Below, one piece after another: positions 1,302 to 26,390 of a stretch of 26,943 nucleotides of DNA (position 1 is the stretch's first letter; every line of letters begins with the position of its first letter). Below the pieces are notes generated by a model. That model was not told where the DNA came from, did no database searches, and saw nothing but the letters and a program-made list of their open reading frames with translations. The position numbers and the translations under genes were made by a program. The stretch comes from an uncultured Pseudomonadales bacterium (lineage in GTDB: Bacteria; Patescibacteriota; Microgenomatia; UBA1400; UBA12108): positions 1 to 26,943 of the forward strand of contig CAZBFT010000002.1 of NCBI GenBank assembly GCA_964491465.1, written 5' to 3'.

Positions 1302-1322
1302 AAAGGTGGGAATCCCACCTTT
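1302..1322 (-). terminator. Intrinsic terminator-like hairpin upstream of nusA
   Basis: Perfect 9-bp inverted repeat AAAGGTGGG-att-CCCACCTTT; on the minus strand the GC stem is followed by TTTTATT. Confidence 0.7.
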
Positions 1323-1337
1323 CACTTTTCACACTAC
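1317..1337 (-). repeat. Degenerate heptamer repeat (GTAGTGT GAAAAGT GAAAGGT)
   Basis: Three 7-nt units in register; same GAAAAGT unit as at 18075-18102. Confidence 0.4.
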
Positions 1338-1354
1338 AACAGGGGCATTATACA

Positions 1355-1594
1355 CTATTCCAAATCGGAGAAGTCTTCGTCGAGAATTTGAGTACTATTG
1401 ATGTCGGATTCCAGACTGTTATCGTCGGTGCCGGAGCCAACGGCCGGCTGAGATTCTAGGGCCGAGTCGGGGGTGGGTGTGGGAGTGGCGACGGGACTGG
1501 CCGAGGTGGACTGGCCGCCAGTGGGAACTAGATTTGACAAAGTACAACCACCCAGGATGAGGGCGCTACCAATCAAAAAAATCAATTTCTTCAT
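1355..1594 (-). CDS. Small lipoprotein with Pro/Thr linker and acidic tail (79 aa)
   Basis: MKK + hydrophobic stretch + lipobox LGGC; TPTPTP linker; ATGA overlap with upstream gene. Confidence 0.75.
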   Translation of the reverse strand: MKKLIFLIGSALILGGCTLSNLVPTGGQSTSASPVATPTPTPDSALESQPAVGSGTDDNSLESDINSTQILDEDFSDLE

Positions 1595-2190
1595 AATGAT
1601 TGCTCCACGGCAGAGCTAGCAGCGGGGAGCGCGGGCTTACTGATAGTTTTTAGTAGTTTGAGGGCGTCTTTGAGCAATTTGTGAACTTCGAGGAAAGCGC
1701 CGCGAGCTTGCATGGCCTGGTCGCGCGCTGCCTGAGCTTGGGCTTTTTGTTCGCTAAACTTGGCTGGATCGATGGCGCGGAAGTCAGCCACGGCCTGCTC
1801 GCCGAGAGATTTTGCGCTAGCGAGCTGCGTCTTGGCGGCATCCAGCTTGACCTGGATGGTGGAGACGTCGGTGCCTTTATTTTTGAGAGTATCAAGGCGA
1901 GTTTGGAAGCGAGTAATGATGTTGGTCAGACGTTCAAAATAAAATTTGAAGCGACGCTCCAGGCGGTTGGCGTGATTTTGGGCGACACTGCTACGGAGGG
2001 TTTGCAGTTGGTTTTGAGCTTGCTCGCGCAAGTTTTGCCGACCGTCTTTGATTTCTTGCACCTCGAGAGGGCGACTAGAGTCCTTCCGACGCTGGGGCGA
2101 GGGTTCGACCGAGCCATCCGTGGCGTAGACGCAGAGGGGTGTAAACAAAGTTAACAAAATAAAGACGGTGAGCAGGCGCGAGCTGAGCAT
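1591..2190 (-). CDS. Exported coiled-coil protein (199 aa from ATG 2190)
   Basis: Signal peptide (LLTVFILLTLFTPLCVYA), long helical Q/A/K/R-rich body; AGAGG SD 7 nt before ATG 2190. Confidence 0.75.
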   Translation of the reverse strand: MLSSRLLTVFILLTLFTPLCVYATDGSVEPSPQRRKDSSRPLEVQEIKDGRQNLREQAQNQLQTLRSSVAQNHANRLERRFKFYFERLTNIITRFQTRLDTLKNKGTDVSTIQVKLDAAKTQLASAKSLGEQAVADFRAIDPAKFSEQKAQAQAARDQAMQARGAFLEVHKLLKDALKLLKTISKPALPAASSAVEQSL

Positions 2191-2224
2191 AAACAAACCT
2201 CTTTGATTTTAGTTTAGCACGATC

Positions 2225-3139
2225 TCAGAAAGAGAAGCGTTCGAGGAATTTTCTGAATGGTGACGACTCGGTCGAAGTGGTCACGGTAACGCCAGTTTCG
2301 GCTGAGACTTCGGTTTGTTTTTGAAAACGAGCTCGGAAAAGTCCGAGGAAGCGCTTGGTTTCCTCGTGCTTGATTTGGTAGACAGGCTCGCCGGCCTTGT
2401 TTTCGGTTAATTGAATGTCGTCACTGTTTTCGACTTCAGCGACGTCATCGAGTAGACCTTTTTCAATCATCTTTTCAACTGCTTGGTCGGGGAGGACGGT
2501 GACGATTTTGGTGGTACCATCTGGGCGGGTCACGACCAGCTCATTGTTATTATTAACTGTGAGTGGCAGCTCGGTTTTGGCCTTCAATTTTTCGCGCCTG
2601 ATTTCGAGCTCACCGTTTTTCACGGCGTTGATTTCGAGTCTTTCCCCGTCTGATTGGTCCACGTGGAGGGATTCTTTGGGTTCTAGTTCGACTTCTGTTT
2701 CTTGATGAGTACCATTGCGGAGCTCAATTTTTTGTTTGATTTTGAGTTTGTCCCCATCAGTTTCCAGTTCAAATTCATTCTTGCTGGGAGATTTTCTTTT
2801 GTTGGCTTCGATTTGACGCTCTAATTTTTGTTTGGCTGCCTCGCGGATTTTTTCGGCATTGCGTTTTTCCATTTCGCGATTGGTCTCAGCGACGCTATTT
2901 TCGGTTCGCTGGATGTTGCCAGGATTTGTGCCACGAGGGATGGCCTGGTTGGGGACTTCGCGAATATCTTCGGCGTCCTCGTTTTCGACCTCGACTTGGT
3001 CGTCGTCGCCCAAAACGGAACCATCAACTTTGATCAAGTATCCGGAGCCGTCGATCAAATAGTCGGCACGGGCGGTGCCGGTAGCGACAAAAGCGAAAAC
3101 TAGTAGCGTGAGTGAGCTGACAACGAGTGATTTGGACAT
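2225..3139 (-). CDS. Exported hypothetical protein (304 aa)
   Basis: Signal peptide ending ATGTARA, charged helical middle, beta-rich C-terminus; AGGAGG SD. Confidence 0.8.
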   Translation of the reverse strand: MSKSLVVSSLTLLVFAFVATGTARADYLIDGSGYLIKVDGSVLGDDDQVEVENEDAEDIREVPNQAIPRGTNPGNIQRTENSVAETNREMEKRNAEKIREAAKQKLERQIEANKRKSPSKNEFELETDGDKLKIKQKIELRNGTHQETEVELEPKESLHVDQSDGERLEINAVKNGELEIRREKLKAKTELPLTVNNNNELVVTRPDGTTKIVTVLPDQAVEKMIEKGLLDDVAEVENSDDIQLTENKAGEPVYQIKHEETKRFLGLFRARFQKQTEVSAETGVTVTTSTESSPFRKFLERFSF

Positions 3140-3180
3140 AAGTCCTCCTAATTTAGTAACTAGTATAGTAGTAGCACAAA

Positions 3181-4233
3181 TTAAAAAAGATTGAAAGTCT
3201 TGTTTTGCTCATTTTTGTTCCCCCGGGCGTCGAGGACACGAGCCGCAAATGAGTGAGCGGATCCGGAAGTCCCCTGGAAACAGTAGCTAGCGTCGACCAT
3301 ACTGGACCAGGTACCGCCGTCGACTTTTTGTTCGAGTTTGAGCTCGGAAGCTGTAGACACGTTGTCGGTGGGAGCGGAGGGGATGAGGAAGCAAGTACCA
3401 TTTTCACCCCAGTCGTAGGGGCCGGAAAGAGTAAAATTGGGAGCAATATTGTCGGTCAAATTTTCGTAGTCGACGCGGGCGAAGTTGTTGCTGTGGTTGG
3501 ATTCCTTCAGCGACTTGTCGCCATTGACGGTGAGCTTGAGGCTGTGACGACCGAGATCGATCGTGGCGTCGTGGCAGTAATCGTAAAGTCTGCCCGACTC
3601 AAGGCGATCATATTGACTCAGGGTCCCGGAGTCGATTTCTTTGTCATCGAGGGTCAAACTATATTTGACCAACTTGCCATCGGAGACGTTTTCGTTGGCC
3701 ACGAGATGAAAACAAACAGTGACCCGTGGAGACCAGGCCTGCTTGACTTCGTCAAATTGCCCAATTTGGACACTGGTGTATTCACGATTGATCTCGCGGC
3801 CATTGCCGCTACCGTCGTCGATTGTTTGGCGGATGTTGCCAGCCGGGTTGCCAAAGCGGAGGTCAAAAGTAGGGGGCTGATAAGGCGTCGGTGTGGGAGA
3901 GGGGGAAGCGTGGGGAGAAGGGATGGTTGTTGGCTTGACAGTAGGCTTGGCGGAAGCTTTGGGAGAAGAACTCGCCTCGGGGGAAGGAGAGGTTTCGGGT
4001 TCGGGACTAGGTTCGACAGTAGGAGAGGGGGTGGGCAGGGGAGCGGGAGAAGAGGAAATTTCTTGCTTGAGCTTGCTCATGTAGTAGGCACCCCCCAGGG
4101 CGGCGGCCAGGACAAAGACGACAACAACGCCAAGAAGCAGGGGTCCGATGGGATTGTGATGGCGAGTTTTCAGCGGGAGAATGGGAGTGGTGGGAATAAT
4201 ATCGGGAGGAACGGTAGCGGCAGGATCGGTCAT
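3181..4233 (-). CDS. Membrane-anchored surface protein: TM, Pro/Ser/Thr linker, CARDB-like and Ig-like domains (350 aa)
   Basis: TM LLLGVVVVFVLAAALGGAYYM; SPSP/TPTP linker; CARDB-type motif LTVNGDKSLKESNHSNN; C-terminal beta-sandwich with DARGN. Confidence 0.75.
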   Translation of the reverse strand: MTDPAATVPPDIIPTTPILPLKTRHHNPIGPLLLGVVVVFVLAAALGGAYYMSKLKQEISSSPAPLPTPSPTVEPSPEPETSPSPEASSSPKASAKPTVKPTTIPSPHASPSPTPTPYQPPTFDLRFGNPAGNIRQTIDDGSGNGREINREYTSVQIGQFDEVKQAWSPRVTVCFHLVANENVSDGKLVKYSLTLDDKEIDSGTLSQYDRLESGRLYDYCHDATIDLGRHSLKLTVNGDKSLKESNHSNNFARVDYENLTDNIAPNFTLSGPYDWGENGTCFLIPSAPTDNVSTASELKLEQKVDGGTWSSMVDASYCFQGTSGSAHSFAARVLDARGNKNEQNKTFNLF

Positions 4234-4240
4234 CTTCTAA

Positions 4241-5119
4241 CTATAATTCTTTTGATAGCTCTTGCACAAGCTCTTTGGCACGACGGCCCAGTTTTTCCGG
4301 CAACATGACCTTGAGTTTGATGTAAAAGTCCCCGCGGCCAGAACCCTGCAAGTGTTTAATCCCGCGGCCGGCCAGGCGGACGGTCGTGCTCGGTTGGGTG
4401 CCGGGACGGATTTTGATCTTGAGATCGCCGTCGAGCGTGGGGATTGTGGTGTCTCCCCCCAAAATGGCCAGGGTGAAAGGAATTTCGTGTAGGATAAAAA
4501 CGTCGGCGCCTTCGCGGCGGAAAGTTTTATCAGCCCTGACATTGACGCTCAGGTCAAATTCGCGATAGCGGATCCGGGTACCGTCGTCGGCGCCGGGCGG
4601 GATTTTAACCGTGAATTGTTTGCCTTGGTGGACAAAGGTTTTCTCCACGCCATGCACGGCGTCCATAAAGTCGATTGTCAGCGAATAGTGCGGTTTGGTT
4701 TGAAACTGACTGCCAAAGGGATTTTGGCCGCCAAAAAAAGATTCAAAAATGTTAAAGGGATCGGAAAATCCCTGGCCTTGGTTGCCAAATAAATCTTCGA
4801 ATCCTCCACCGGTCGTGTAGGTATAACTGAAAGGACCAGAGCGGTATGACTGACTACCCTGCCCGCCGCCAAACCCGCCAAAGCCGGAGCTGGGGTCAAA
4901 AGCGGCGTGACCAAACTGGTCGTACTTGGCTTTTTTCTCAGAATTGCTTAGGACTTCGTAGGCTTCGTTGACTTCTTTAAACTTGGCTTCGGCGCCAGAT
5001 TCTTTGTTGCGGTCGGGATGCCACTTGAGGGCTAGTTTGCGGTAGGCACTTTTGAGTTCGCTGTCCGTGGCGCTACGACTCACGCCTAAGATTTCGTAGT
5101 AATCCTTTTTCGTAGTCAT
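4241..5119 (-). CDS. dnaJ: Class B (CbpA-like) DnaJ chaperone without zinc finger (292 aa)
   Basis: J-domain DYYEILGV...KWHPDRN, G/F-rich region, C-terminal domain VKIPPG...IPTLDG...GRGD; no CxxCxGxG repeats. Confidence 0.92.
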
Positions 5120-5141
5120 GGGAGTGATTATAAAGCGCGGC

Positions 5142-5168
5142 TAAGCAGTAAACAAGGGTGAGTGCTAA
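5142..5168 (-). promoter_or_regulatory. Degenerate CIRCE (HrcA operator) over the dnaJ promoter
   Basis: Minus strand TTAGCACTC-N9-TACTGCTTA (9/9 and 6/9 vs TTAGCACTC-N9-GAGTGCTAA), overlapping -35 TTGTTT (5150-5155); -10 TATAAT at 5127-5132, 17-nt spacer. Confidence 0.7.
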
Positions 5169-5563
5169 AAGCGAGGATTACGGTTGGCATTTTCCAACCA
5201 TTGGCTATAGAAACCTATAACAAGCTTGTGATAATACTGCAATTGGGTTGACAGACGATGTTTGTCTTCTTTAAGTTCCCGCTCATAGTATTCGATGGCC
5301 CTTCGGGCATATACATCTGCAGGGGTTGTTTGATCAAGTCTATATTTTATTTCTTGTTCAAAATGTTCTGCAAATGCGGCCTTATTGCGCATAAACCTCT
5401 CATAGACGGCCGCGTCACTAAATACCACTTCATCGCTAGCCATAGGAGAAATGGTGGCACCGGCTACGAGGAAATAGACACTACACGGACCATCAAATAA
5501 CTGCTGCTGGCCTAGGTCAACTTCGCTTTGTGATAAATCATTTTCATGATTGGCTGCAAGCAT
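5165..5563 (-). CDS. Hypothetical protein (132 aa), AT-rich
   Basis: Fills the dnaJ-upp gap on the same strand; TAGAAT 8 nt before ATG; no recognised motif. Confidence 0.6.
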   Translation of the reverse strand: MLAANHENDLSQSEVDLGQQQLFDGPCSVYFLVAGATISPMASDEVVFSDAAVYERFMRNKAAFAEHFEQEIKYRLDQTTPADVYARRAIEYYERELKEDKHRLSTQLQYYHKLVIGFYSQWLENANRNPRF

Positions 5564-5650
5564 AAAAATATATTCTAACTGTATGAGTAATGATATAGGG
5601 CAGACTCTAGCACTCGCTAGGAGCAGAAACTACAGACAATAGCGGGCAGG

Positions 5651-6352
5651 CTAGACTGTGCCAAATTGGCGGTCGCCGGCGTCGCCGAGACCGGGCACGA
5701 TGTAGGCTTGCTGGTTGAGATGGTCGTCGACGGCGGCCACAGTGACCTGCACATCGGGATACTTTTTGTTGAGTGCACGGATACCTTCGGGGGCGGCGAG
5801 CATACTAATCATTTTGACAGTACCTTGGGGATAAATGGATTTGATCCGTTGCACCGTTTCGATCGCGCTGCCGCCAGTCGCCAACATGGGATCGAGAATC
5901 AAGAAAACTGCGTGTGCGCCGTGGTTGAGATAGGCAAGGTCTTTGAGATCGTAGTACCAGTGGGCAATCGCGGTTGCTTCGTCACGTGCCATCCCGGCGA
6001 AAATGGTGGTGGCCGCGGGGAAAATGGCTTGGGCTGGAGCCAACATCCCAACGCCAGAGCGAAGTACGGGGATCAAGACTATTTGATCTCGGAGACGGCG
6101 AGCATGGACGGGAGCGAGTGGGGTGGCAATTTTTACTTTCGTTTCGGCCAAATCGGCAGTGGCTGCATAGATAAGCGGCGGGGCGAGCCGATAGACCGCA
6201 GCGCGAAAGTTTTCGAGATTGGTTTTGTGATCGCGCATGACCCGCAGGCAGTCGCGAACCAAGGGATGATCAACAATCGTGACGTGGAGAGACGCATCGG
6301 CTTGGGCACTGACTAATAATTGTTGTTCGTCATATTCCAAATCTTGTGTCAT
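5651..6352 (-). CDS. upp: Uracil phosphoribosyltransferase (233 aa from ATG 6352)
   Basis: PVLRSGVGM, PRPP-binding LILDPMLATGGSA, YIVPGLGDAGDRQFGT; TACAAT 8 nt before ATG 6352. Confidence 0.95.
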   Translation of the reverse strand: MTQDLEYDEQQLLVSAQADASLHVTIVDHPLVRDCLRVMRDHKTNLENFRAAVYRLAPPLIYAATADLAETKVKIATPLAPVHARRLRDQIVLIPVLRSGVGMLAPAQAIFPAATTIFAGMARDEATAIAHWYYDLKDLAYLNHGAHAVFLILDPMLATGGSAIETVQRIKSIYPQGTVKMISMLAAPEGIRALNKKYPDVQVTVAAVDDHLNQQAYIVPGLGDAGDRQFGTV

Positions 6353-6447
6353 GTATGTGTATTGTAGTGGATTTACGGTAAGTTCATAGTAAGAGTGCTG
6401 CTTGTTGGCTGTTGTTTTACTGAATATATTGGACAATTATTAGATTA

Positions 6448-6696: not shown

Positions 6697-6697
6697 T

Positions 6698-12506: not shown

Positions 12507-12971
12507 TTAATTTGACGGTTTGATGGGTGCGCCGCTACCCACAATGACGCGGGCGGGACGGAGGACGCGGTCGTGGAGCTTGTAACCGCGACGGACTTCT
12601 TGGATAATTTGGTCTTTCTCGCCGGGAGCGGTTTCGTGGCATTCCATGGTTGATGGGTCAAAGCCAGCGTCGGTTTTGACCTCGGATACCCCTTCTTCGA
12701 CCAAGAGTTTGTCGAGATTGCCCAAGATCATTTTGAGCGAAGAGTCTCCGGTTGCGGCGGCCATACCAAGGTGATCGCGTATTTCGAGTAGTTTTTCGAT
12801 GAGGCTGGCGTTAGCAAACTTTACAATCGAGCTACTGTCGCGCTCGAAACGTTTCTCGAGATTGGCGTAGTCGGCGAGGGCGCGGGCGAGTTGAGACTCT
12901 AGATTCGAGATTTTAGATTCAAGATTTTGGATTTGGGGGGAAGTGGGTGTTTTGACAGTTTTAGCTTTCAT
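12507..12971 (-). CDS. grpE: Nucleotide exchange factor GrpE (154 aa)
   Basis: RALADYANLEKR, FDPSTMEC, RRGYKLHDRVLRPARVIV; directly upstream of dnaK. Confidence 0.96.
   Translation of the reverse strand: MKAKTVKTPTSPQIQNLESKISNLESQLARALADYANLEKRFERDSSSIVKFANASLIEKLLEIRDHLGMAAATGDSSLKMILGNLDKLLVEEGVSEVKTDAGFDPSTMECHETAPGEKDQIIQEVRRGYKLHDRVLRPARVIVGSGAPIKPSN
12894..12935 (-). repeat. In-frame degenerate heptamer tandem repeat in grpE
   Basis: Plus strand AGACTCT AGATTCG AGATTTT AGATTCA AGATTTT GGATTTG, six units in exact 7-nt register. Confidence 0.85.
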
Positions 12972-14436: not shown

Positions 14437-16272
14437 TTAAATTTTGAGTATCTCGGTGAAGGCGGCCTGGGGGACCTCGACGCTCCCCAGCATTTTCATT
14501 TTCTTTTTGCCTTTTTTTTGCTTCTCGAGTAGTTTGCGGTTACGGGTCATGTCGCCGCCGTGTAGTTTGGCGGTCACGTCTTTGCGGTAGGCGCGGATTG
14601 TGGCGCGGGCAATGATCTTGCCGCCGATCGCGGCCTGGATCGCCACTTCGATCTGACTGCGGGGGATCACGTCTTTGAGTTTTTCGACCAATACCCGACC
14701 CCTCCCCTCGGCCTCACTGCGGGGGGCGACAAAAGAGAGGGCCTCGGCCGGTTCGGTATTGAGGAGAATATCTACTTTGACGGCGTCAACTGGAAGGTAA
14801 CCGGCGTGATCATACTGCACGCTAGCGTAGCCAGAACTCACCGATTTGAGACGGTCGTAGAAATTGGTAATGAGTTCAGCCAGTGGCATCAAGTAATTGA
14901 GCCGGACCCGACCAGAAACGTACTGCATATCCACAAATTCAGCCCGCTTGTTTTGGCAAAGTTCCATAATGCCGCCCACATAGGTTTCGGGGGTGTATAC
15001 GGTCAGGGTGACCATGGGTTCCTCCACGACATCGACCGTCTCTGGTTTGGGCCAGTCGGCGGGAGAGGAAATTTCCGAAGTGGTGCCATTTTTGATTTTG
15101 ATACGATAAGGGACCGAGGGCGAGGTATTGACCACGTTAACCTCGAATTCGCGGCTGAGGCGCTCGGTGACAATTTCGGCGTGGAGGATGCCCAGGAAGC
15201 CCACGCGGAAACCGTGACCGAGAGCAGGACTACTAGCCGCGTGGTAAGAAAGGGAGGTGTCGTTGAGGGCTAATTTGCCGAGAGCGTCGATAAGATTGCG
15301 ATAATCGGCTGCGTCCATGGGATAAAGATCCATAAAGACCATGGGTTGGGGACGCTGATATCCCTCGATGGGAGTGATGGTGGTACCCACGGTCGTGAGA
15401 GTGTCGCCAATAGTAATAGCGCGAATATCCTTGTGGCCGGTGGCGACAAAGCCAACTTCGCCTGATTTGATCGCGTCAGAGCTACGCATGTCGGGAGAGA
15501 AAAAGCCGATGTCGAGTGGAGATAACTTTTCCTGGGTAGCGTAAAGGAAAAGCGAGTCACGGTTGGATTGGTTGATCTCCCCTGCAATTACTTTCACAAA
15601 GGCAATCACGCCTTTGTGGGTGTCGAAGGTACTATTAAAAACTAGTGCCCGTAAATCCGTAGATCCGTGAATCCGTGAATCCGTGTAAGGAGCTGGGATG
15701 CGAGACACGATGGCGTCCAAGAGTACTGGAACACCCTCACCGGTTTTGGCAGAGACAAAGAGAATGTCGTCGTGGGTAAATCCCAGATTTTCGATGAGTT
15801 CGAGGGCAACTCTTTCCGGCTCGGCTCCAGCCATGTCGATTTTGTTGATGACAGGGATAATGGTTAAGCCAATTTCTTTGGCTAAGGCATAATTGGCCAA
15901 GGTTTGAGCCTGGACGCCCTTGGTGGCGTCAACTACTAGGACGGCACCTTCGCAGGCGTGGAGGGCGCGGCTGACTTCGTAGCTAAAGTCGACATGCCCT
16001 GGTGTGTCGATCAGATTCAGAATGAATTCTGAATCTGAATTCTCAAATCTTAAATTCTCCAATTGCTCCAATTGGGGGTGATAAATCATCCGGACGGGGG
16101 CGAGCTTGATGGTGATGCCGCGCTCGACTTCTATGGGATTGCTATCCATGAGGCGCACTGTTCCCCCCGGAGCCACGGTGCCGGTAGCTTCGAGTAAGCG
16201 ATCGGTCAAAGTAGTTTTGCCATGGTCAATGTGGGCAATAATACTAAAATTTCTTATATTGGGTGTATTCAT
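14437..16272 (-). CDS. lepA: Translation elongation factor 4 (LepA) (611 aa)
   Basis: IRNFSIIAHIDHGKTTL, ERGITIK, LIDTPGHVDFSYEVSR, NKID, GFRVGFLGILH, RKLLEKQKKGKKKMK. Confidence 0.98.
   Translation of the reverse strand: MNTPNIRNFSIIAHIDHGKTTLTDRLLEATGTVAPGGTVRLMDSNPIEVERGITIKLAPVRMIYHPQLEQLENLRFENSDSEFILNLIDTPGHVDFSYEVSRALHACEGAVLVVDATKGVQAQTLANYALAKEIGLTIIPVINKIDMAGAEPERVALELIENLGFTHDDILFVSAKTGEGVPVLLDAIVSRIPAPYTDSRIHGSTDLRALVFNSTFDTHKGVIAFVKVIAGEINQSNRDSLFLYATQEKLSPLDIGFFSPDMRSSDAIKSGEVGFVATGHKDIRAITIGDTLTTVGTTITPIEGYQRPQPMVFMDLYPMDAADYRNLIDALGKLALNDTSLSYHAASSPALGHGFRVGFLGILHAEIVTERLSREFEVNVVNTSPSVPYRIKIKNGTTSEISSPADWPKPETVDVVEEPMVTLTVYTPETYVGGIMELCQNKRAEFVDMQYVSGRVRLNYLMPLAELITNFYDRLKSVSSGYASVQYDHAGYLPVDAVKVDILLNTEPAEALSFVAPRSEAEGRGRVLVEKLKDVIPRSQIEVAIQAAIGGKIIARATIRAYRKDVTAKLHGGDMTRNRKLLEKQKKGKKKMKMLGSVEVPQAAFTEILKI
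15653..15684 (-). repeat. In-frame octamer tandem repeat in lepA
   Basis: Minus strand (CACGGATT)2 CACGGATC TACGGATT region; plus strand AAATCCGT AGATCCGT GAATCCGT GAATCCGT. Confidence 0.85.
16011..16075 (-). repeat. In-frame degenerate AATT-rich repeat with 13-bp inverted repeat in lepA
   Basis: TCAGATTCAGAAT-ga-ATTCTGAATCTGA (16011-16038) followed by irregular 6-9-nt AATTCT/AATCT units. Confidence 0.7.
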
Positions 16273-16281
16273 AGGGTCTTT

Positions 16282-16409
16282 TCAGTTTGTCAGTAGCTCG
16301 GCGAATCGGCAAGTCGGCTATATCAGTAAATCAGAAAATGCATTAATTGCTGATAAACTGGCAAACTGGTCGACTGGTATGCTGACTAGCTGATTTGCTG
16401 GTGTGCTGG
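16282..16409. repeat. Palindromic degenerate octamer element A (murJ-lepA intergenic)
   Basis: Seven TCRGnnnn units (16282-16338), 7-nt loop, eight nnnnCTGR units (16346-16409). Confidence 0.85.
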
Positions 16410-16410
16410 A

Positions 16411-18063
16411 TTATACCGAACTTTCGCTGGTATCGAGAGTTTCCTTGGAGAGCCCTAGGGCTTTGGGCCAGTTGCCGATCTTTTCGATTAAGCGAATAAA
16501 GACGCCAAGTTCGCGGATATTGAGGAAGTAGGAACAAGCCAGGTATACGCCAGTACCAATCAAGGTAACCGAGATAGTGAGCATGATCAGAGGGACGGTG
16601 CGGGTAGTATCAAATATCATTTGATCCAGATAGCGGAATGGGACCCAAAGGGCAATCGCGGTGACTCCGGTAGCTAGCAGCATTTTGCCTAGAGGAGCTA
16701 AGATGTGTGAAACGGCAAATTGGGCCAAGCTATAGAGGATGGAGGTAAGGATCACGGTCTCGATGAGCGAGGCGACGGTGATGGCAAAGGCCATGCCGAG
16801 TACACCAGATTTGATCACAAACAGAAAATAGTAACTCAGACTTACGTTGGTTATGGTTGAAAGCAAGTTGACAATAAAGGGAGTGCGGGTATCGTGAAGC
16901 GCGTAAAAGACGCGGACCAACACGTGGGTGAGCGAGCGGGCGGCGATGGAGATGGCCAAAATGGCAACCAATTTGCCAGTCAAGACGGTCTCCGCCCAGG
17001 GGAAAGAATCGGCTCCGTAAGCCAAGCGAACCAAGGGAATACGCAAGATGAGGACAATAACTGAAGCGGGAAGTGCCAGGTATAACATTTCCAGAATAGT
17101 GTTGTTGACCATGGTGGCTAAGTCACTAAGGTTGTGACGACCAGTTTCTTTGGCAAAAAACGGTAGCGAAGCCTGGCCGATCGGGATCCCAATTAAACGA
17201 ACGGGCAGGTTGGCTAACTGCTGGGCGATAGAGATAATAGTCACCGTGCCGACGGAGAGCCAAGAGGAAAAAGTGATGATGGCTGTCGCCTCGATTTGAG
17301 TAAGAGATAGAGTTAAGACCCTGGGGAGCATTAGACCCCCCATCTCGCGTACGGCGGGATGACGTAAGTCGATGGTGGGGAGATAGCGGAAACCTAATTT
17401 ACTGGCTAGGGGTAATTGAGCTAATAAATGTAGGCAGGCTCCCATCACTACTCCGATGGCAGCGCCATAAATACCCATGGATCGTCCAAACAACAGAATG
17501 CCCAAAATAATACCCAAGTTATACAAAATCGGGGACAGGGCCGGGATCAAAAAGCGTTTGTGGGATTGGATGATGCCGGTGAGGAATGAAGAGAAGCCAA
17601 AAAAGAGCTGGGCAGCGGCCATGATGCGGGTAAGGTTGGTCATTAGGGATAATTGGTCCGCTGAAAAACCACCAGCAATCAGCCGGGAAAGTGGGGCAGC
17701 AAAAATAAAGATAGCGGCCGAGAGCACAATCATGACCAACATAACAGCGTTGATCAGAGAGCAAGCGATTTTGTTGGCGTGGCCATTGTCACCCAAGTAG
17801 CGGCTAAAAACTGGGATAAAAGCGGAGGAGAGGGCGCCGACAATGATAATTTGAAAGACCATGTCTGGTAGCCGGAAGGCAGCCCAAAAAACATCTACGA
17901 TCCGGGGATCGGCGTAAAAGTAACTGATGAGCAGGCGAGTGCGAATTAAACCAAGTACAGCCGAGCCAAGCGTGGCGCCCATGATAATGGTGGCGGCGGA
18001 GAGGATGGAAGAACTTTCTTTTTCGAAAAGATCGCGGCCGTTTTGCATAAAGCGTTTGAACAT
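16411..18063 (-). CDS. murJ: Lipid II flippase MurJ (MviN) (550 aa)
   Basis: VLGLIRTRLL, AAFRLPD, ALSSAFIPVF, PALSPILYNL, QLANLPVRLIG, RVFYALHDTRTP; many TMs. Confidence 0.93.
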   Translation of the reverse strand: MFKRFMQNGRDLFEKESSSILSAATIIMGATLGSAVLGLIRTRLLISYFYADPRIVDVFWAAFRLPDMVFQIIIVGALSSAFIPVFSRYLGDNGHANKIACSLINAVMLVMIVLSAAIFIFAAPLSRLIAGGFSADQLSLMTNLTRIMAAAQLFFGFSSFLTGIIQSHKRFLIPALSPILYNLGIILGILLFGRSMGIYGAAIGVVMGACLHLLAQLPLASKLGFRYLPTIDLRHPAVREMGGLMLPRVLTLSLTQIEATAIITFSSWLSVGTVTIISIAQQLANLPVRLIGIPIGQASLPFFAKETGRHNLSDLATMVNNTILEMLYLALPASVIVLILRIPLVRLAYGADSFPWAETVLTGKLVAILAISIAARSLTHVLVRVFYALHDTRTPFIVNLLSTITNVSLSYYFLFVIKSGVLGMAFAITVASLIETVILTSILYSLAQFAVSHILAPLGKMLLATGVTAIALWVPFRYLDQMIFDTTRTVPLIMLTISVTLIGTGVYLACSYFLNIRELGVFIRLIEKIGNWPKALGLSKETLDTSESSV

Positions 18064-18074
18064 ACAAGGTTAGT

Positions 18075-18102
18075 GTAGAGTGAAAAGTAAAAAGTGAAAA
18101 GT
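18075..18102 (+). repeat. Degenerate heptamer repeat between divergent murJ and rpsT
   Basis: GTAGAGT GAAAAGT AAAAAGT GAAAAGT. Confidence 0.65.
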
Positions 18103-18104
18103 CG

Positions 18105-18133
18105 TTGTCAATTAATACTTGTCCTGATATACT
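18105..18133 (+). promoter_or_regulatory. Strong sigma70/A promoter of rpsT
   Basis: TTGTCA (18105-18110)-17-TATACT (18128-18133) with extended TGn; ATG 10 nt downstream. Confidence 0.8.
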
Positions 18134-18143
18134 ACGCCGTAAT

Positions 18144-18407
18144 ATGCCGATAACCAAATCAGCCATCAAGAAACAGAGGGTGGACAAGAAGCGCGCGATG
18201 ACCAACGAGCCGGTTACCGGTAGGGTTAAGGCCACAATCAAAGAGGTGAGACAAAGTCCTTCCAAGGAATCGGTAGCGGCTTTGTACCAAGCGTTGGACA
18301 AGGCAGTAGCGAAAAAGCTGGTCACTCTCCGGACGGCGGCGAGGATGAAGGCAAGGGTACTCAAGGCAATTAGGGCCAAGTTGACCAAATCTCCGTTTGG
18401 GAAGTGA
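18144..18407 (+). CDS. rpsT: 30S ribosomal protein S20 (87 aa from ATG 18144)
   Basis: MPITKSAIKKQRVDKKR...N...LDKAVAKK...AARMKAR matches the S20 pattern. Confidence 0.93.
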   Translation: MPITKSAIKKQRVDKKRAMTNEPVTGRVKATIKEVRQSPSKESVAALYQALDKAVAKKLVTLRTAARMKARVLKAIRAKLTKSPFGK

Positions 18408-18455
18408 AGTTAGAGCGGTTGTTGTATTGTTCCGCAGGTTAGCTATACTGGATTC

Positions 18456-19040
18456 ATGCAGCTGCCCGCTTTCTTTGGTCACAAAAAATCGATTAACTTG
18501 CTTCCCCGTGATGAGTTTGAGTCGAGTGCGATGGGAGTGGTGCTAGAGTGGGCACTGGCTTTTGGGAAGTGGGCGGTCATTTTGACACAATTGATAGTGA
18601 TGGGAACTTTCTTGTGGAGATTTTCGCTCGACAGGCAACTGACGGATCTAAAGAAATCAATTAACAAAAATGTGGCGATTATCAAGTCGTATGAGCAAAT
18701 CGAGAAGGACTTTATTTTGACGCAGAAGCGAGTCAGTTTGGCAACAAAAATCCTGGACCAACAAAACAAAGAGTCCGAGATCTTGACCCAATTGACCCAA
18801 ATTACCCCAGCTGATGTGTGGCTAGATAAATTGAATATCACGGAGAGTACGGTTAACCTGAGCGCGTACGCAGGATCATTAAATGGATTCGGGCAGTTTT
18901 TGACGGCAGCGCAAAAAGTGCCGTTGTTTAAAAGCATCACCGTGAACAAAATTCAAGATGGCGGGACAGAAAATGCTCAAATGCAGTTTGACCTGACAAT
19001 CACATACAACACCGGTGTAAAGACGGCGGAGAAGCTATGA
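18456..19040 (+). CDS. PilN-like type IV pilus alignment protein (194 aa)
   Basis: INLLP N-terminal motif, single TM, coiled coil, ITPADVWLDKLNI..., FDLTI ferredoxin-like core; TATACT 6 nt before ATG. Confidence 0.75.
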   Translation: MQLPAFFGHKKSINLLPRDEFESSAMGVVLEWALAFGKWAVILTQLIVMGTFLWRFSLDRQLTDLKKSINKNVAIIKSYEQIEKDFILTQKRVSLATKILDQQNKESEILTQLTQITPADVWLDKLNITESTVNLSAYAGSLNGFGQFLTAAQKVPLFKSITVNKIQDGGTENAQMQFDLTITYNTGVKTAEKL

Positions 19041-21412: not shown

Positions 21413-21419
21413 GATTGTT

Positions 21420-22946
21420 ATGCCTGACACACAATTACCAGATCCCCAGGCAGCTGTGAATGCCGCTTTGGGTAACCCGCCGGCAACTACTCCTATGGAG
21501 CCGGTGCAACCAATGACAACGCCTGCACCAATGCCTCCGACCGAGACCGTCCCAACGGAGTTGGTGAACCCAGCTGACCCCACTAAGCCCGTGGAAGCTT
21601 TGGTGGCGTCTGCTCCGGAACCAGTCACTTTACCCCAACCAGAACCACTGCCCATGCCACAGCCGGCCCCATCTACGGGTGTCCCGATGGGAGACGATAC
21701 ACCGCTCGCGTTTGCAGCAGCTCAGGCTATGGCCGCCCCATCGAGTCCTGCCCCAACCCCAGTTACAGAGGGCACTAGCAGCTATCTCCCCCCCACTCCG
21801 CCCATTCCTCCCGCTCCCGCCGTCCCACCCGAACCAAAGAAGAAAAAGGGAGGGAAGGGGAAGGTAGTGGGAGTATTGGCTGGAGTATTGTTGCTTGTAG
21901 TGGGGGTAGTGGGTGGACTCTGGGGATATGAAAGGCTATCGGGCAAACCTGGGTTAATTGCTGCGATCACCATGCCTTGCGGTGAGGCAGATGCTGGACA
22001 GTGTGTACCAAAAAGTTGGACGTGTAAAAGTTCTGGAAAGGGGACATGCTCCGGAGGAGGGAAATGTGGAATCAATTGTTCAGAACCAGGTGGGGGCGGT
22101 GGGGGTGGAGGAGACCCTGAAATTTGTACTCCAGGAGCTCAAAATAACTGTACACCGATTGATGGGTGTCCTGCCAAGTCTACGTGTAATTCGAGTGGAA
22201 CGGCATGGCAACCTTGTGCCAAGGTTGATCCAAATTGCAAACCATGTGCAAGTGTAATATGTGATCAAGGTGCTACTTGCAAGAATGGCCTGTGTGAATT
22301 CCCTTGTGCTGCAGGTTATGAGTTGGACGCTAGTGGGCAGTGCGTATTATTGAATGCAGGAGGACCTGTAAGTTGTGGCAGTATTAAGACTGCGGCTCAA
22401 TGTACTGCCGCTGGGGGTGAACCAGTGACAGAACCTGGTACGGGTAGTAAGTGTGATGCCAATGGACATTGGTGTAGTGTTATACGCGATGAGTGTAAAA
22501 TTAATGGTAAGTGGTGTTTAATGGGTACGAGTGATAAGTGCTCTGGTGGCGTTGACGAAAGATGTGTTCCGGCAACTCCTACTCCCACTCCCAAGCCGTC
22601 ACCAATTCCCTCTCCCACCCCCTCCCCTTCTCCCTCTCCCTCGCCTTCACCGGTGATGGCCTGTACAGGATTGACTAAGGCGCCAACTACGGCTCCAAAG
22701 ATTGGGGACAAAATAACGTTTACGTGTACAGGGACTTCTACCTATACTGGAGGAGCGGCGGCACTCAAATACAAATACCGCTATAACATAAATGATGGTG
22801 CCTGGACAAACTTGACTACCAAGACTAATGGAAAGTCGGAACTGACAATAGCCGCTTGCGGATCTTACGAAGTACAGTGCCGAGCTTGCGTGACCAGTGG
22901 AGCCACCGAGATTTGTGATCCTACATGGACAGGAGCAACACAATGA
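21420..22946 (+). CDS. Type II membrane protein: Pro-rich N-terminus, TM, Cys-rich ectodomain, SP linker, beta-sandwich (508 aa)
   Basis: KKKKGGKGK then TM; 26 Cys in 196 codons; (SP)n linker. Confidence 0.8.
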   Translation: MPDTQLPDPQAAVNAALGNPPATTPMEPVQPMTTPAPMPPTETVPTELVNPADPTKPVEALVASAPEPVTLPQPEPLPMPQPAPSTGVPMGDDTPLAFAAAQAMAAPSSPAPTPVTEGTSSYLPPTPPIPPAPAVPPEPKKKKGGKGKVVGVLAGVLLLVVGVVGGLWGYERLSGKPGLIAAITMPCGEADAGQCVPKSWTCKSSGKGTCSGGGKCGINCSEPGGGGGGGGDPEICTPGAQNNCTPIDGCPAKSTCNSSGTAWQPCAKVDPNCKPCASVICDQGATCKNGLCEFPCAAGYELDASGQCVLLNAGGPVSCGSIKTAAQCTAAGGEPVTEPGTGSKCDANGHWCSVIRDECKINGKWCLMGTSDKCSGGVDERCVPATPTPTPKPSPIPSPTPSPSPSPSPSPVMACTGLTKAPTTAPKIGDKITFTCTGTSTYTGGAAALKYKYRYNINDGAWTNLTTKTNGKSELTIAACGSYEVQCRACVTSGATEICDPTWTGATQ

Positions 22947-23875
22947 AACCAAGCATGAAGAAATCACTATTAATTGGACTCGGAATATTTGGGGTGATTG
23001 TGGTTTCCGTGGCTTTGGTTTATTACCTACGCAAGCCGACAGTGACTAGACCCACCCCGACCCCTACTCCGACTGTGGCAGTGACCCCCACGACCGCGCC
23101 GATCTTTGAAGTGAATCCGGCGGAGGCGGTGTGTTCAACTAAGTTTGTGGTCGCTTGTGCTTCGCCTTCACCTTCGATTTCACCATCCCCATCGCCTTCT
23201 CGTTCACCTTCACCCACTCCTTCTCGTTCACCTTCACCCACTCCTTCACCTTCACCTTCTATATTGCCCTCGCCTATACCTAGCCCATCGGTGATTCCGT
23301 CGGTTTCACCTTCCCCTGCACTATCAGCCAACTTGGACTGTGTGGCTAAAGAGGTATACGCGGATGATTCGAGGAATCGTGCCGGATTCTACTATTTGGA
23401 GTCGCGGATTACTGATGCTTCTAGTTTACAGACCGGGACAACCGTGACCTACAACATTATTGCTAAGAACAATGGGGGGGTCGCGGCGCCGGACGTGAAG
23501 ATCACTGATGTACTATCTACCAATCTAACCTTCGTCGATGCCGACAGTGACTGTAGCTACGACTCGGCGACCCGAACCTTGACATGCACAATGGGAACGC
23601 TAAATGCAGGAGCACAAACCCAACGCAGTTTCCGCGCTACTCTGAATACTTCGTCAACTGCTTCGGTGGCGAACACGGCCGAAGTCTTTTCGAGTAACGG
23701 CCAACGTGATAGCTGCGCCGTCAACCTAACAGCCACTGGGATAGTGGTGGTGACCCAACCATCTGAGGCACCCACGGCGCTGCCAGAGGCTGGGGTGTTT
23801 GAGATCACGGCTGGGACGATGGGGGTCGGGTTAGTACTACTGATACTCGGGGCGTTGGGACTGCTACTTATTTAA
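22943..23875 (+). CDS. DUF11 (conserved repeat domain) surface protein with SP linker and LPEAG C-terminal anchor (310 aa from ATG 22943)
   Basis: VTYNIIAKNNG...VKITDVLSTNLTFV...TLNAG DUF11 pattern; ATGA overlap with upstream stop. Confidence 0.8.
   Translation: MKPSMKKSLLIGLGIFGVIVVSVALVYYLRKPTVTRPTPTPTPTVAVTPTTAPIFEVNPAEAVCSTKFVVACASPSPSISPSPSPSRSPSPTPSRSPSPTPSPSPSILPSPIPSPSVIPSVSPSPALSANLDCVAKEVYADDSRNRAGFYYLESRITDASSLQTGTTVTYNIIAKNNGGVAAPDVKITDVLSTNLTFVDADSDCSYDSATRTLTCTMGTLNAGAQTQRSFRATLNTSSTASVANTAEVFSSNGQRDSCAVNLTATGIVVVTQPSEAPTALPEAGVFEITAGTMGVGLVLLILGALGLLLI
23195..23247 (+). repeat. Exact 24-nt tandem duplication in the SP linker
   Basis: CCTTCTCGTTCACCTTCACCCACT x2 plus 5 nt, encoding PSRSPSPT. 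Confidence 0.9.
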
Positions 23876-23996
23876 TCTGCACGTCAGTGAATCAGTTTGC
23901 CGGTTTGTTAGTATGTCGGTTTATCAGGTAATCGGTGTGTTGCTGGCAAGCTGGTAGTGATGACTAGCCGAATTGCCGGGTGTACTGATGTGCTGA
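23876..23996. repeat. Palindromic degenerate octamer element B (between convergent genes)
   Basis: Seven to eight YYRGnnnn units (23876-23939), then seven nnnnCYGR-type units (23940-23996); shares units such as TCAGTTTG with element A. Confidence 0.8.
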
Positions 23997-23999
23997 TTA

Positions 24000-26390
24000 T
24001 TATTTCCAGCTGGGGAAGAGACCAAAGATCGTGTTGCGGTAAACTTCTGGAGTAGGAAGGCCATAGAGAAGGGGTGCAATGAGAATCAAAGAACTAGAAA
24101 TTAGAATTAAACAGAGGACGCGGTATTTGTAGGGCAGTTCGAATAACCAGGCGGCGAGAATGACACAAAGAAAAGTAGCAGAGGGCAAGTAGTGGTAAAA
24201 GAACATGATGCGAGGAGAGAAGACCCAGGGGAGAGTAAAAATAGAATATAAGAGATAGGAGATGGTATATGGGAAGCGCAGAATCCTGGGGAGCAGCATA
24301 ATCGCGGCGATTAATCCTAGCCAAAGCAAAACGGGGTTGCCTTGGGCATAAATATTGCTCACGAGGCTACCGGCATAATCGACCCAGTACCAAACTGGGC
24401 GGGCAGAGACAACCCACTGCAGCGGGGTGGATTGGTATCCATGAGTGGCTACTAGATGGGTATGGTAGTACCACATTTGACGGCGTAGCTCCCACCACTG
24501 ATCCCAGGTGTGACCAGCAAGGATAAAGGGAGTGAATGTCAATACATAAACGGCTAGAGTAACTAACAACATCCGGATGGCAAAAACGAGGTGTCGAATG
24601 CTTGATTTTAGATTCCAGGATAAAGGATTATTGGAGTGAAGATAAATAAAGGTGAGAGGGACGATGCCATAAAGGGCGCTCCATTTACACCCCAAAGCGA
24701 GGCCGTAGAGGACAGCACTCCATTTCCAGCGTGATTTGACGGCGGCATACAGCGACCAAACAAAAAAACATAGCATATAAATGTCGTTCATGGCGATACG
24801 AGATTGGGAGATGTGCAGACCTTCGAGGCTGGCGAGCAAAGATGCAAGTAGGGCAAGCTTTTTTTGCTGGAAAACAGCGAGGGTGAACATGTAAATTCCC
24901 AGGATACTGATGATCCCCAAGGCGGCGCTGCCCACACGGTAGCCAAATTCATCTTCCCCAAACAGGAGCATCCCCAAGACCATACCGTATTTGGCGACAG
25001 GCGGGTGGGTCCATTCATAGGCGACCCCTTCGGGCGGAGTAGTCCACCACTCCCACGCTTCGATGCGATTGTGCAGGTATTCTTTGGCGGTAAAGGCGTG
25101 ATAAACTTCGTCAAAAATATAGGCGCGGGGATGGGAGAGGTTGGTCAATCGTAGCAGTGAAGCAATGAGCAAAATGCCAACGAGAAGTTTGTTGGATTTG
25201 AGAAGAGAGAAGAGAGAAGAGAGAGATTTTTGCCAGTCCCAGATAAAGGCGAGACTGATGGCGGTCAGAACAATGGCCCAGGAACTGAGTGAGGTCACCC
25301 ACAAAGGAAGTGGCCAAACTTGCGCGTGGTTGACCCAATAAAAGGCGCTATACAAATTGAGGGAAAAGGTACAAGTTAAAAGAAACAAGGGGAGCCAAAG
25401 AAACGATTGGGCCGGCACTGCAAGTGTCAGGAAAGGCAGACCAAATAAGAGATGGCGTTCGTGCATGCGAGTGGTAAAGGCATAAAACAAAATGAGAATG
25501 GTGGCGGCCAATCGAGGAGCAAATTGCGGAGCAAACTTAAGTTTGCGCCAGTGATTAAAGATAATTAGGGTAAATAAAGTAAAAAGAGTAAGGCCGAGTG
25601 CGCGGGCGGAGATACCCAAAACACTACCGGAATCGGGAATCCAAGCAAGGTTGGGGACCAGCGACCACAGGTTCCAGGCGTTGATGGTCATAAAGGGGTA
25701 AGTGCCGGCCTGATCCATAATGCGGCTGTAAAGGTGAGGCAGAAAGCTCCAGCCACCGGTCGGGATGCCGGTTGCAAAAAAAGTGGCAGCAGAAAACAAG
25801 GGGAATTGCCAGAAGTATTTCTTTTGGATGGCTACGATCCAGAGAACGGGAGCAACTAAAATGAGGATGGGTTTGTAGGCGACGGCTAGTCCAAATAGAG
25901 CTGCGGAGAAGTATTTGGCGCTTAGTATTTTGTATTTAGTATTAGGCTTATTGAGCAGTAAAGATAACGATAAAAGGGCGAGAAGAGAGGGAATGCTGTC
26001 TACCTGGCCCCAAAATGAGGTGTCGCCGATTAGAGCGGGAGACAAAAGAAGAAGAAGTTTGGGTAAGAGAGGTAAATTGGGTAAGAGAAGAATCAGGATG
26101 ACTTCGATAGCTGAGTGGAAAAGCTTGAAGATAAAACTAAAGTCCCAATGGAAAACTTGGGAGAGGTAGGCGGGGATGCCAAAACTGAGAATTGGCAGGG
26201 GGAGATAGTCCGACCAGATGTTGTCAAAGAAATGCCGGGCGCCGACGCTTAACAAATGATTGCCCCAAGCGTTGTAGGTCCCCATGTCGTAAGGCTGAGC
26301 GGTGGTAGTGCTGCCATAGAGCCGGATGCCAACGGCGAGGAAAAGAGCTAACCAAGGCAGATATTTACTTGACCAGATTTTCGGCCACAT
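24000..26390 (-). CDS. Fused double GT-C glycosyltransferase: N-terminal GT-C domain + protein O-mannosyltransferase (PMT/GT39)-like domain (796 aa from ATG 26390)
   Basis: C-half: IFDEVYH, THPPVAK, SRIAMNDI, CKWS, HGYQSTPLQW, GNPVLLW, FFYHYLP. N-half: YDMGTY, DYLP, WGQVD, NAWNLW, RMHERH. Confidence 0.85.
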   Translation of the reverse strand: MWPKIWSSKYLPWLALFLAVGIRLYGSTTTAQPYDMGTYNAWGNHLLSVGARHFFDNIWSDYLPLPILSFGIPAYLSQVFHWDFSFIFKLFHSAIEVILILLLPNLPLLPKLLLLLSPALIGDTSFWGQVDSIPSLLALLSLSLLLNKPNTKYKILSAKYFSAALFGLAVAYKPILILVAPVLWIVAIQKKYFWQFPLFSAATFFATGIPTGGWSFLPHLYSRIMDQAGTYPFMTINAWNLWSLVPNLAWIPDSGSVLGISARALGLTLFTLFTLIIFNHWRKLKFAPQFAPRLAATILILFYAFTTRMHERHLLFGLPFLTLAVPAQSFLWLPLFLLTCTFSLNLYSAFYWVNHAQVWPLPLWVTSLSSWAIVLTAISLAFIWDWQKSLSSLFSLLKSNKLLVGILLIASLLRLTNLSHPRAYIFDEVYHAFTAKEYLHNRIEAWEWWTTPPEGVAYEWTHPPVAKYGMVLGMLLFGEDEFGYRVGSAALGIISILGIYMFTLAVFQQKKLALLASLLASLEGLHISQSRIAMNDIYMLCFFVWSLYAAVKSRWKWSAVLYGLALGCKWSALYGIVPLTFIYLHSNNPLSWNLKSSIRHLVFAIRMLLVTLAVYVLTFTPFILAGHTWDQWWELRRQMWYYHTHLVATHGYQSTPLQWVVSARPVWYWVDYAGSLVSNIYAQGNPVLLWLGLIAAIMLLPRILRFPYTISYLLYSIFTLPWVFSPRIMFFYHYLPSATFLCVILAAWLFELPYKYRVLCLILISSSLILIAPLLYGLPTPEVYRNTIFGLFPSWK
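25911..25945 (-). repeat. In-frame degenerate heptamer repeat in the glycosyltransferase
   Basis: Plus strand GTATTTG, GTATTTT, GTATTTA, GTATTAG in 7-nt register at 25911, 25925, 25932, 25939; encodes PNTKYKILSAKY. Confidence 0.7.

Follow-up and report, generated by a model that had tools for sequence, protein, structure and literature searches.

Tandem arrays of degenerate 7-9-nt units, located between and inside the housekeeping genes of an uncultured groundwater bacterium with a small genome, probably a member of the candidate phyla radiation, form dispersed repeat families and are not unrelated microsatellites. The window analysed here is 26,943 nt long and opens contig C2 of an assembly of 859 kb (129 contigs, 86% complete, 3% contamination; genome G000). 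It was compared with about 30 relatives (G004, G005, G008 and others) that have genomes of 0.5-1.3 Mb, most analyses being performed on subsets of these. Sequences of the same families are found as gene-less hairpins, as in-frame inserts in conserved genes, and as the inverted arms of small cassettes that carry a gene for a four-helix-bundle (4HB) protein of family PF05635, and whole elements are present or absent at orthologous sites. The tracts are probably cassettes of the intervening sequence (IVS) type, the best known of which reside in 23S rRNA genes, together with gene-less derivatives of such cassettes; these would be kept where selection tolerates them, with slippage acting on top.

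Periodic tracts and repeat families

A tract was defined as a self-match of at least 75% over 24 nt at a given lag, and tracts were counted over the whole genome. There are 49 tracts at lag 7 and 38 at lag 8, compared with 3, 17, 14 and 2 at lags 5, 6, 9 and 10, respectively. Markov-3 null sequences (n=3) yield 0-1 tracts per lag. The 621 non-overlapping long open reading frames (ORFs; 626 kb) contain 24 lag-7 and 20 lag-8 tracts, and five codon shuffles contain none of either. The excess of 7- and 8-nt periods over a codon-shuffled null, the control that the initial annotation of the window called for, is thus real, although the strictness of period that the annotation described is slightly overstated, as units range from 7 to 9 nt. 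Of the 87 strict tracts, 54 fall in open frames that reach 150 residues or more; another 17 are intergenic, and 16 are ambiguous. Since frames of that length span 86% of the genome, non-coding DNA is enriched in tracts, although the absolute majority are coding. A strict search for an inverted partner of each tract (13/16 matches within 300 nt) was too stringent for degenerate arms and is uninformative.

Family 1 is an arm of about 60 nt with 7.5 octamer units, in which a TCRGY core is conserved and three positions are weakly constrained. When turned to read TCRG, the arms align colinearly over about 60 nt, the outer units being of the GCACA type and the inner ones of the GTTTG type. A profile search of the genome detected 48 family-1 arms at E<0.01, including both arms of two palindromic elements in the window, termed here A and B, to whose arms no strand is assigned. 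Element A consists of a left arm at 16280-16338 (TCRGY plus 3 variable bases, about 7.5 units; nhmmer E 2.1e-11) and an inverted right arm at 16347-16410 (E 4.2e-14), and the two arms fill the 138-nt spacer between the murJ stop codon and the lepA start codon. Element B sits between the convergent DUF11 and PMT genes. Its left arm (23876-23935; E 4.4e-6) is more diverged and was outside the profile training set; its inverted right arm is at 23943-23998 (E 1.2e-3).

Family 2 is a string of about 34 nt with four AATTCTCA-type octamers. A search of the genome with a 26-nt pattern from this string gave 20 copies, of which 18 match exactly, versus 0 with the pattern reversed as a control. One copy is in lepA, in frame, on the minus strand at 16011-16075, with an exact match to the pattern at 16038-16063. 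Two other words of the window are also found elsewhere. The AGATTYN word of a tract in grpE has about 15 genome loci versus 4 in the control, and in G017 and G014 the ACGGATTC octamer, present in a second lepA tract, makes up the arms of 4HB cassettes. The five cores that the initial annotation listed are separate families and not variants of each other.

Some family-2 copies end with ...CTCAAATG or ...CTCCAATG directly at the apparent start codon of the next gene (C3:12716, C23:9837, C50:3693, C15:289 and C11:15454). The repeat may supply or abut start codons at these loci.

In other genomes, a five-unit phased YCRG pattern, counted as overlapping matches, is found 73 times in G000, 72 in G008, 53 in G004, 35 in G014 and 20 in G029. 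It is absent from 16 of the 31 genomes, and with reversed controls each genome yields 0-2 matches, the value for G000 being 0. The variable positions of YCRG arrays follow a genome-specific dialect. At a cassette adjacent to efp, the arms have CCGT-core octamers in two genera, and both arms have CAGT-core units in a third. The genome dialects and the switch of word in both arms imply that the arrays evolve in concert.

A purely local origin should be considered, whereby the tracts arose in place by slippage as variable number tandem repeats (VNTRs) and decayed by point mutation, their likeness being compositional and the 4HB genes bystanders. Perfect or near-perfect arrays do exist, at 25200-25224 in the window, as (TCGGCATA)x10 in G004 and as (GTACATG)n; the grpE tract grew from a native seed with no net change in length; and the IVS of Coxiella burnetii shows heptamer copy-number polymorphism (PMC4990558). 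However, at 48 unlinked loci the different units of family-1 arms follow one colinear order for about 60 nt, family 2 keeps its 26 nt with 0-2 mismatches at 20 loci and occurs in five genera, and whole elements are present or absent at orthologous spacers. In addition, slippage alone leaves unexplained the inverted pairs and the boxing of one gene family. We regard this origin as unlikely for the system as a whole. The label of microsatellite or VNTR does not fit, because most units differ, their order is shared among unlinked loci, and whole elements come and go at orthologous sites. The contrast with ordinary slippage microsatellites of identical units, drawn in the initial annotation, stands for most tracts, and fails for a minority that fit a VNTR description (25200-25224 and the G004 array). 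The single writing process also proposed there is unsupported. At least two things happen: the dispersal of copies with a colinear consensus, and the local gain and loss of units by slippage.

An assembly artefact or chance was also weighed, as the genome is a fragmented metagenome-assembled genome with the contig number and contamination given above. Independently built Logan contigs of two groundwater samples reproduce positions 15259-15719, 15740-16569, 17937-18987 and 25813-26600 with zero differences, and these stretches cover the lepA tracts, element A, the tract upstream of murJ and the tract at 25911. This identity indicates that the tracts are not assembly artefacts. Reading frames are kept, the nulls give 0-1 tracts, and the phenomenon is found in about 20 other genomes. 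The probability of artefact or chance is negligible.

Four-helix-bundle cassettes

The genome has three PF05635 matches, on contigs C31, C29 and C7. The 4HB gene at C31:890-1249 is boxed by family-1 octamer arms (E 5e-8 and 4e-7), detected with the same profile as elements A and B. Family-2 arms box the gene at C29:8626-8922, whose frame is interrupted by one stop, and an arm matches the 26-nt pattern of the lepA insert. The third gene, C7:1915-2505, has TTATAA-core 8-9-nt arrays upstream, inside the ORF (in frame as YNNYKSYNNYSRY) and near its end. Thus the families are shared by hairpins, coding inserts and 4HB cassettes, and the idea that the window's tracts belong to one connected system tied to small cassettes holds. 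The link to 4HB genes (TIGR02436/PF05635), which the initial annotation had mentioned for other genomes, is real here; for the GxxExxY genes mentioned with it, no TIGR04256 gene was found in the 86%-complete assembly.

The contig of the window has no PF05635 match, and elements A and B have only 8-15 nt between their arms and no ORF. They are gene-less relatives of the 4HB cassette, not cassettes. Their terminal inverted repeats of tandem 7-9-nt units are homologous to the cargo-bearing arms, and the 4HB gene is the only cargo seen between arms.

PF05635 is present in 24 of 31 genomes (30 relatives plus G000). Among 30 sampled PF05635 genes, about 22 have inverted 7-9-nt arrays on both sides, 26 have an array on at least one side, and 4 have none. 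Arm words are locus-specific, and the tree of 4HB proteins clusters by arm word and by period. Related 4HB proteins carry related words with the same period, which argues that gene and arms are inherited together. The density of lag-7 plus lag-8 tracts per 100 kb is 0, 0, 0, 5.2 and 7.8 in five genomes without PF05635 and 5, 10, 20, 20, 20 and 26 in six genomes with it; the comparison, based on 40-80 kb sampled per genome, is descriptive, since kinship among these genomes makes them non-independent.

Avd, the accessory protein of diversity-generating retroelements (DGRs), is structurally related to PF05635 proteins, and the degenerate fixed-period units recall stuttering synthesis. These two points raise the question whether a reverse transcriptase, partnered by an Avd-like protein, writes the units from a template, in the manner of a DGR or of the unit addition of telomerase. 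No RVT_1 match was found in the 86%-complete assembly, and no template or target pair was seen. Templated writing is hardly probable.

Presence and absence at orthologous sites

The murJ-lepA spacer, which in the window is all element A, measures 0-8 nt in five relatives. In other relatives it contains unrelated hairpins or other 7-nt arrays.

A wider range of states is found at the site of the C31 cassette, which sits between ybaB and recR of the conserved dnaX-ybaB-recR operon. In 11 of 29 relatives the ybaB-recR spacer has 0-25 nt. In G014 it has a 4HB cassette of about 500 nt with family-1 arms, as in G000. In G008 (locus L254, G008:C14:81130-82169) the cassette arms are in place and the 4HB gene is on the opposite strand relative to L242 (G000 C31) and L245 (G014:C2). 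The inverted cargo suggests recombination between the inverted arms. The spacer of G017 has a gene-less family-2 palindrome of 89 nt, and those of G028 and G029 have heptamer palindromes. Five further relatives (L243 in G013, L247 in G011, L248 in G015, L249 in G018 and L250 in G012) share a conserved insert of 144-175 nt that ends with CTGCACCTTGTGGCTCACA...ATACAAT and is without 7/8-nt arrays.

The cassette proteins of G000, G014 and G008 are mutually nearest, with 67-70% identity to the G000 protein, versus 73-81% for RecR. Two more members of the genus of G014 have a ybaB-recR spacer of 10 nt. A cassette in G014 and a 10-nt spacer in its congeners imply either several gains or several precise losses; in either case the element behaves as a unit. 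The presence or absence of elements at orthologous loci, which the initial annotation proposed to look for in close relatives, is found at both the ybaB-recR and the murJ-lepA sites, with cargo between the arms at ybaB-recR. The palindromes, 120-150 nt long and composed of two inverted arms of about 60 nt, have the small size and terminal inverted repeats of MITEs, miniature transposable elements bounded by inverted repeats.

Copies inside protein genes

Two tracts are in lepA (minus strand). The family-2 copy at 16011-16075 is located in the beta2-beta3 loop of the G domain, where it corresponds to 11 extra residues relative to solved EF4 sequences. The tract at 15653-15684, made up of four ACGGATTC-type octamers (TRF score 53) and in frame as YTDSRIHGSTD, is in the linker after the G domain and corresponds to 4 extra residues. 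When 27 relatives are aligned, insertions and deletions concentrate at both sites, and 10 of the 27 have a minimal loop at the first site. Different genera have different 7/8-nt words at these sites: (ACGGATTC)3, which fills the first site in G010, (AAATCCC)4, CCATTGN heptamers, a CACACCCGG hairpin, and, in G012, the same family-2 copy.

The ILNLI codons, which are conserved, and the end of the insert in lepA are linked at 16011-16037 by a perfect 13-nt inverted repeat. It is formed by DSE[YF]I codons that relatives of several genera have in common.

Family-1 arms are in frame in ten housekeeping ORFs confirmed by Pfam, among them those of UvrD, RNR, Fmt, GT4, a ComEA-like protein, LeuRS, DnaX, Fpg and Val/IleRS, and a whole hairpin is inside the DnaX ORF. 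The arms encode 20-residue segments rich in Ser, Ala and Gln, and all three phases are used. In ORFs, 10 arms are in the TCRG-sense orientation and 3 in antisense; the mean number of open frames out of 3 is 1.2 for sense and 0.2 for antisense, so the bias arises because stop codons close the antisense frames. An open frame is present in every coding arm and absent in 8 of 28 other arms. This stop filter on coding arms implies that the inserts would be translated and not removed. The claim that coding copies occupy variable loops and keep the frame is therefore upheld, by the variability of the LepA sites and by the ten host genes. The copies are in frame in unrelated conserved genes at permissive sites, as are Rickettsia palindromic elements (RPEs).

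Three diverged RNR C-termini, with about 69% nt identity, have a family-1 arm at the same linker before a CPxCG zinc finger (C4:17243-17302, C88:51-110 and C92:651-711). Three RNR copies in a genome of about 1 Mb may be paralogues or may reflect a mixture of strains in the bin.

Two coding tracts in the window are of another nature. The grpE tract (12894-12935, minus strand; six AGATTYN heptamers, lag 7/14, TRF score 54) is at the start of the long GrpE helix. It shows no change in length relative to relatives and grows from a native CTAGAAT-CTAGTCT seed; in G008 there is a parallel expansion in grpE around the conserved LES codons. The perfect array (GAGAAGA)x3.6 at 25200-25224 (minus strand, 100% matches by TRF), which the initial annotation did not list, also shows no change in length. 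Its in-frame reading, SLSSLFSLL, belongs to the linker that joins the two halves of a PMT-type glycosyltransferase. Judged from these alignments, both tracts look like in-place periodisation by slippage, not insertion.

Selection at the protein level could in principle produce DNA periodicity as a by-product of peptide repeats such as the coiled-coil heptads of GrpE or flexible linkers, and indeed the GrpE tract encodes two heptad-like repeats and the family-1 arms give linker-like peptides. However 7 and 8 are not multiples of three, and within ORFs these lags are commoner than the codon-compatible lags 6, 9 and 12. The same DNA words are also found in non-coding spacers and around 4HB genes, and the arms are read in all three phases. 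Protein-level selection as the source of the periodicity is very unlikely.

Folding of the hairpins

Modeled on the plus strand, element A folds at -55.5 kcal/mol (z -6.6), compared with -28 kcal/mol on the minus strand. Element B reaches -51.5 kcal/mol (z -5.5) on the plus strand, and its minus-strand fold is poor. The plus-strand preference of both elements arises because the differences between their arms are transitions, which give G-U pairs on only one of the strands. This asymmetry is peculiar to A (16275-16415) and B (23870-24000), whereas other family-1 hairpins fold on both strands. Of 10 family-1 hairpins, 8 fold better on the strand that is locally rich in G. For A and B the asymmetry points to mutational decay of older copies, by strand-biased C-to-T change, and not to antisense RNA.

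Two candidate signs of a function in RNA were rejected. Duplex energies of the upstream and downstream arms, taken on both strands in 29 cassettes, favour sense in 16 and antisense in 13 (Wilcoxon p 0.68), which speaks against a sense-strand RNA hairpin as a general feature of cassettes. Identity at variable columns is 0.37 between partner arms and 0.43 between non-partner arms, which gives no support to compensatory covariation between partners.

These data bear on the view that the tracts are host regulatory elements, which a global regulator binds or which act as RNA hairpins (as attenuators, stabilisers or RNase III sites), maintained by selection in operon spacers, with the coding copies incidental. 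In its favour, A and B fold better than shuffled sequences and sit exactly between stop and start codons, and single arms, too, keep the TCRGY core. In Geobacter, paired tandem repeats of hepta- and octanucleotides are annotated as putative global-regulator sites (PMC2700814), and the stem of the Coxiella IVS is cut by RNase III (PMC4990558). However the orthologous spacers of close relatives are without elements, partner arms show no covariation, the polarity of cassettes is inconsistent, and the strand bias seen in A and B goes with local GC skew in 8 of 10 hairpins. An Rfam search of the window gave 0 matches at the gathering score, and most tracts are inside ORFs. A promoter and terminator scan found nothing at the tracts (promoter-like sites, 24 versus 14.5 ± 3.8 in shuffles; terminator-like sites at the shuffle level). 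Folding on both strands, GC skew, the near-even split of arm polarity and the identity of partner arms argue against a structure selected at the RNA level. The arrays may nonetheless be protein-binding sites, to judge from a core kept even in single arms. Taken as an account of the whole system, host regulation is improbable.

Other tracts and genes of the window

The GTGAAAA-type heptamer array at 18072-18102 (3.4 units, no strand assigned; a lag-7 tract at the 80% threshold, TRF score 41) lies 12 nt upstream of the murJ start codon, and a count of word families in the genome did not find a multi-copy family of this word. The GTATTTN heptamers at 25911-25945 (minus strand, TRF score 37) are marginal; they are in a glycosyltransferase loop of variable length, 3-10 residues shorter in relatives, and their word family has 7 loci in the genome versus 4 in the reversed-genome control. 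Two GAAAAGT-like units at 1317-1337 (no strand assigned) lie beside a terminator-like hairpin at 1296-1316. Their word family is no commoner in the genome than in the control, and membership in the tract system is unsupported. The tract at 24603-24616 has two units only and is not significant. Thus, among the nine loci that had been listed in the window, six are individually solid, one (25911-25945) is marginal, and two (1317-1337 and 24603-24616) are at chance level.

The gene map of the window, as assigned by Pfam, is one of ordinary housekeeping. On the minus strand are nusA, dnaJ, upp, dnaK, grpE, hrcA, lepA (14437-16272), murJ (16411-18063) and the gene of the PMT-type glycosyltransferase (24000-26504); on the plus strand are pilN, pilO and genes of surface proteins. 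Repeats in codon phase, with periods of 6, 12, 18 and 24, are found at 22575-22698 and 23160-23259, in an ORF without a Pfam family (21420-22946) and in the gene of DUF11 (22925-23875); they are of an ordinary type, distinct from the tracts. The match to the 834-residue fused glycosyltransferase (24000-26504) has 1-2 stop codons in it in six of nine close relatives (L106-L114), and elsewhere the fusion may exist as two genes or in broken form. Identical heptamer tracts on opposite strands of contig C6 (4964-4984 and 13393-13413), 8.4 kb apart, have identical flanks of at least 25 nt; by sequence comparison, this points to a longer inverted duplication on that contig.

Origin of the tracts

In the scheme that we consider probable, the tracts would be copies, arms and fragments of small palindromic elements common across the lineage, the arms being arrays of degenerate 7-9-nt units. 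A complete element would be an inverted pair of arrays boxing a small PF05635 gene, the build of an ORF-bearing 23S rRNA IVS. Most copies are gene-less, occurring as single arms or as hairpins made by two arms that abut. Elements would be gained and lost as units at orthologous sites. Selection would keep the harmless copies, i.e., those in tiny operon spacers at stop and start codons, or stop-free in-frame inserts in surface loops and linkers. Slippage would add and remove units and homogenise the arrays.

Several points weigh against this scheme. The evidence for mobility is presence and absence among genera, with no observed event. No transposase, recombinase or target-site duplication turned up, though no search for insertion sequence elements was made; by eye, no target-site duplication is evident at the arm ends, where same-species empty sites to define the junctions are lacking. 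Neither insertion polymorphism nor indels were seen in two read sets at 3-4x depth; the joints reported there, each from one contig and with short sides, were disregarded. Only one cargo-bearing element is found among about 48 family-1 arms' worth in the genome. G026, which is 99% complete, has no PF05635 hit yet has clear heptamer palindromes, and G005 and G018 have lepA tracts without a detected 4HB gene. The tracts in grpE and at 25200 replace sequence of equal length rather than add to it. Coding status here is taken from ORFs and Pfam matches.

A bolder proposal, which is tentative and has a fairly low probability of being correct, is that the arrays would be the cis sites of the pentameric 4HB protein. 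Protein and arrays would then form a self-propagating cassette without a transposase, which seeds gene-less arrays across genomes, writes linkers of about 20 residues into essential proteins, and can invert between its arms. Such a cassette would be the common origin of the ORF-bearing rRNA IVS and of the unexplained arrays of 7- and 8-nt units in cyanobacteria, Geobacter and bacteria of the candidate phyla.

Relation to known repeats

The IVS of Coxiella burnetii has 3-4 tandem GACAGAT heptamers before an S23p ORF, varies in copy number among strains, and has a stem that RNase III cuts (PMC4990558). As in the ORF-bearing 23S rRNA IVSs of C. burnetii and Leptospira, the C31 and C29 cassettes have a PF05635 gene between stem-forming terminal inverted repeats. 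They differ in that the elements described here are in operon spacers or protein genes, none being in 23S rRNA helix 25 or 45, are mostly ORF-less, and have arms of up to 7.5 degenerate units.

RPEs are dispersed palindromes of about 100-150 bp in a reduced genome, and many lie in frame within unrelated housekeeping genes, at places that the protein fold can accommodate (PMC10969869). The palindromic form and the in-frame insertion are alike by description. However RPEs are not described as having 7-8-nt units and are not known to box a 4HB gene, and single 60-nt arms are the usual coding form here.

Geobacter metallireducens has elements of four or five tandem degenerate units of 7-8 nt, mostly in inverted pairs at a variable distance, with dozens per genome both between and within genes (PMC2700814). 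They include GGGACCG x4 elements and are termed 'predicted global regulator binding sites', a function that is only predicted (PMC2700814). The phylum and the words differ from those here, and neither a PF05635 link nor in-frame translation is reported for them.

The short tandemly repeated repetitive (STRR) sequences of cyanobacteria are tandem heptanucleotide arrays dispersed through the genome, and their origin is unexplained. The term STRR is in use for the cyanobacterial heptamers (PMC2670836). They belong to another lineage and are mainly intergenic direct arrays, with no cassette or coding role in the searchable literature. The tandem repeats of Borgs evolve fast, are found in ORFs and add low-complexity segments to proteins (PMC9879509). 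These are described as perfect direct repeats formed locally on an archaeal extrachromosomal element, with no mention of palindromic partners or a cargo gene.

A full-text literature search found no account that joins the IVS, the Geobacter repeats and the RPEs, or that describes such elements in candidate-phyla genomes; absence from such a search is no proof. The present analysis adds a tie, at the level of repeat families and inside a single genome, that joins in-frame inserts and gene-less hairpins to the arms of cassettes, and it adds the multi-state ybaB-recR site.

Significance

For about 30 years neither the heptamer and octamer repeats of bacteria nor the rRNA IVS protein had an explanation; here the two appear together as components of one element, and the repeats gain a candidate protein partner that is testable. 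The tracts can mislead gene callers, alignments and binning, and they mark fast-evolving sites useful for strain typing. At least a dozen essential proteins (LepA, RNR, UvrD, LeuRS, DnaX, Fpg and others) would carry translated repeat DNA in a genome of about 1 Mb. This would be a second case of selfish DNA translated in essential proteins, parallel to the RPEs, in an unrelated lineage with reduced genomes. Such inserts would contribute to the inflation of protein length and to the diversity of loops in uncultured bacteria.

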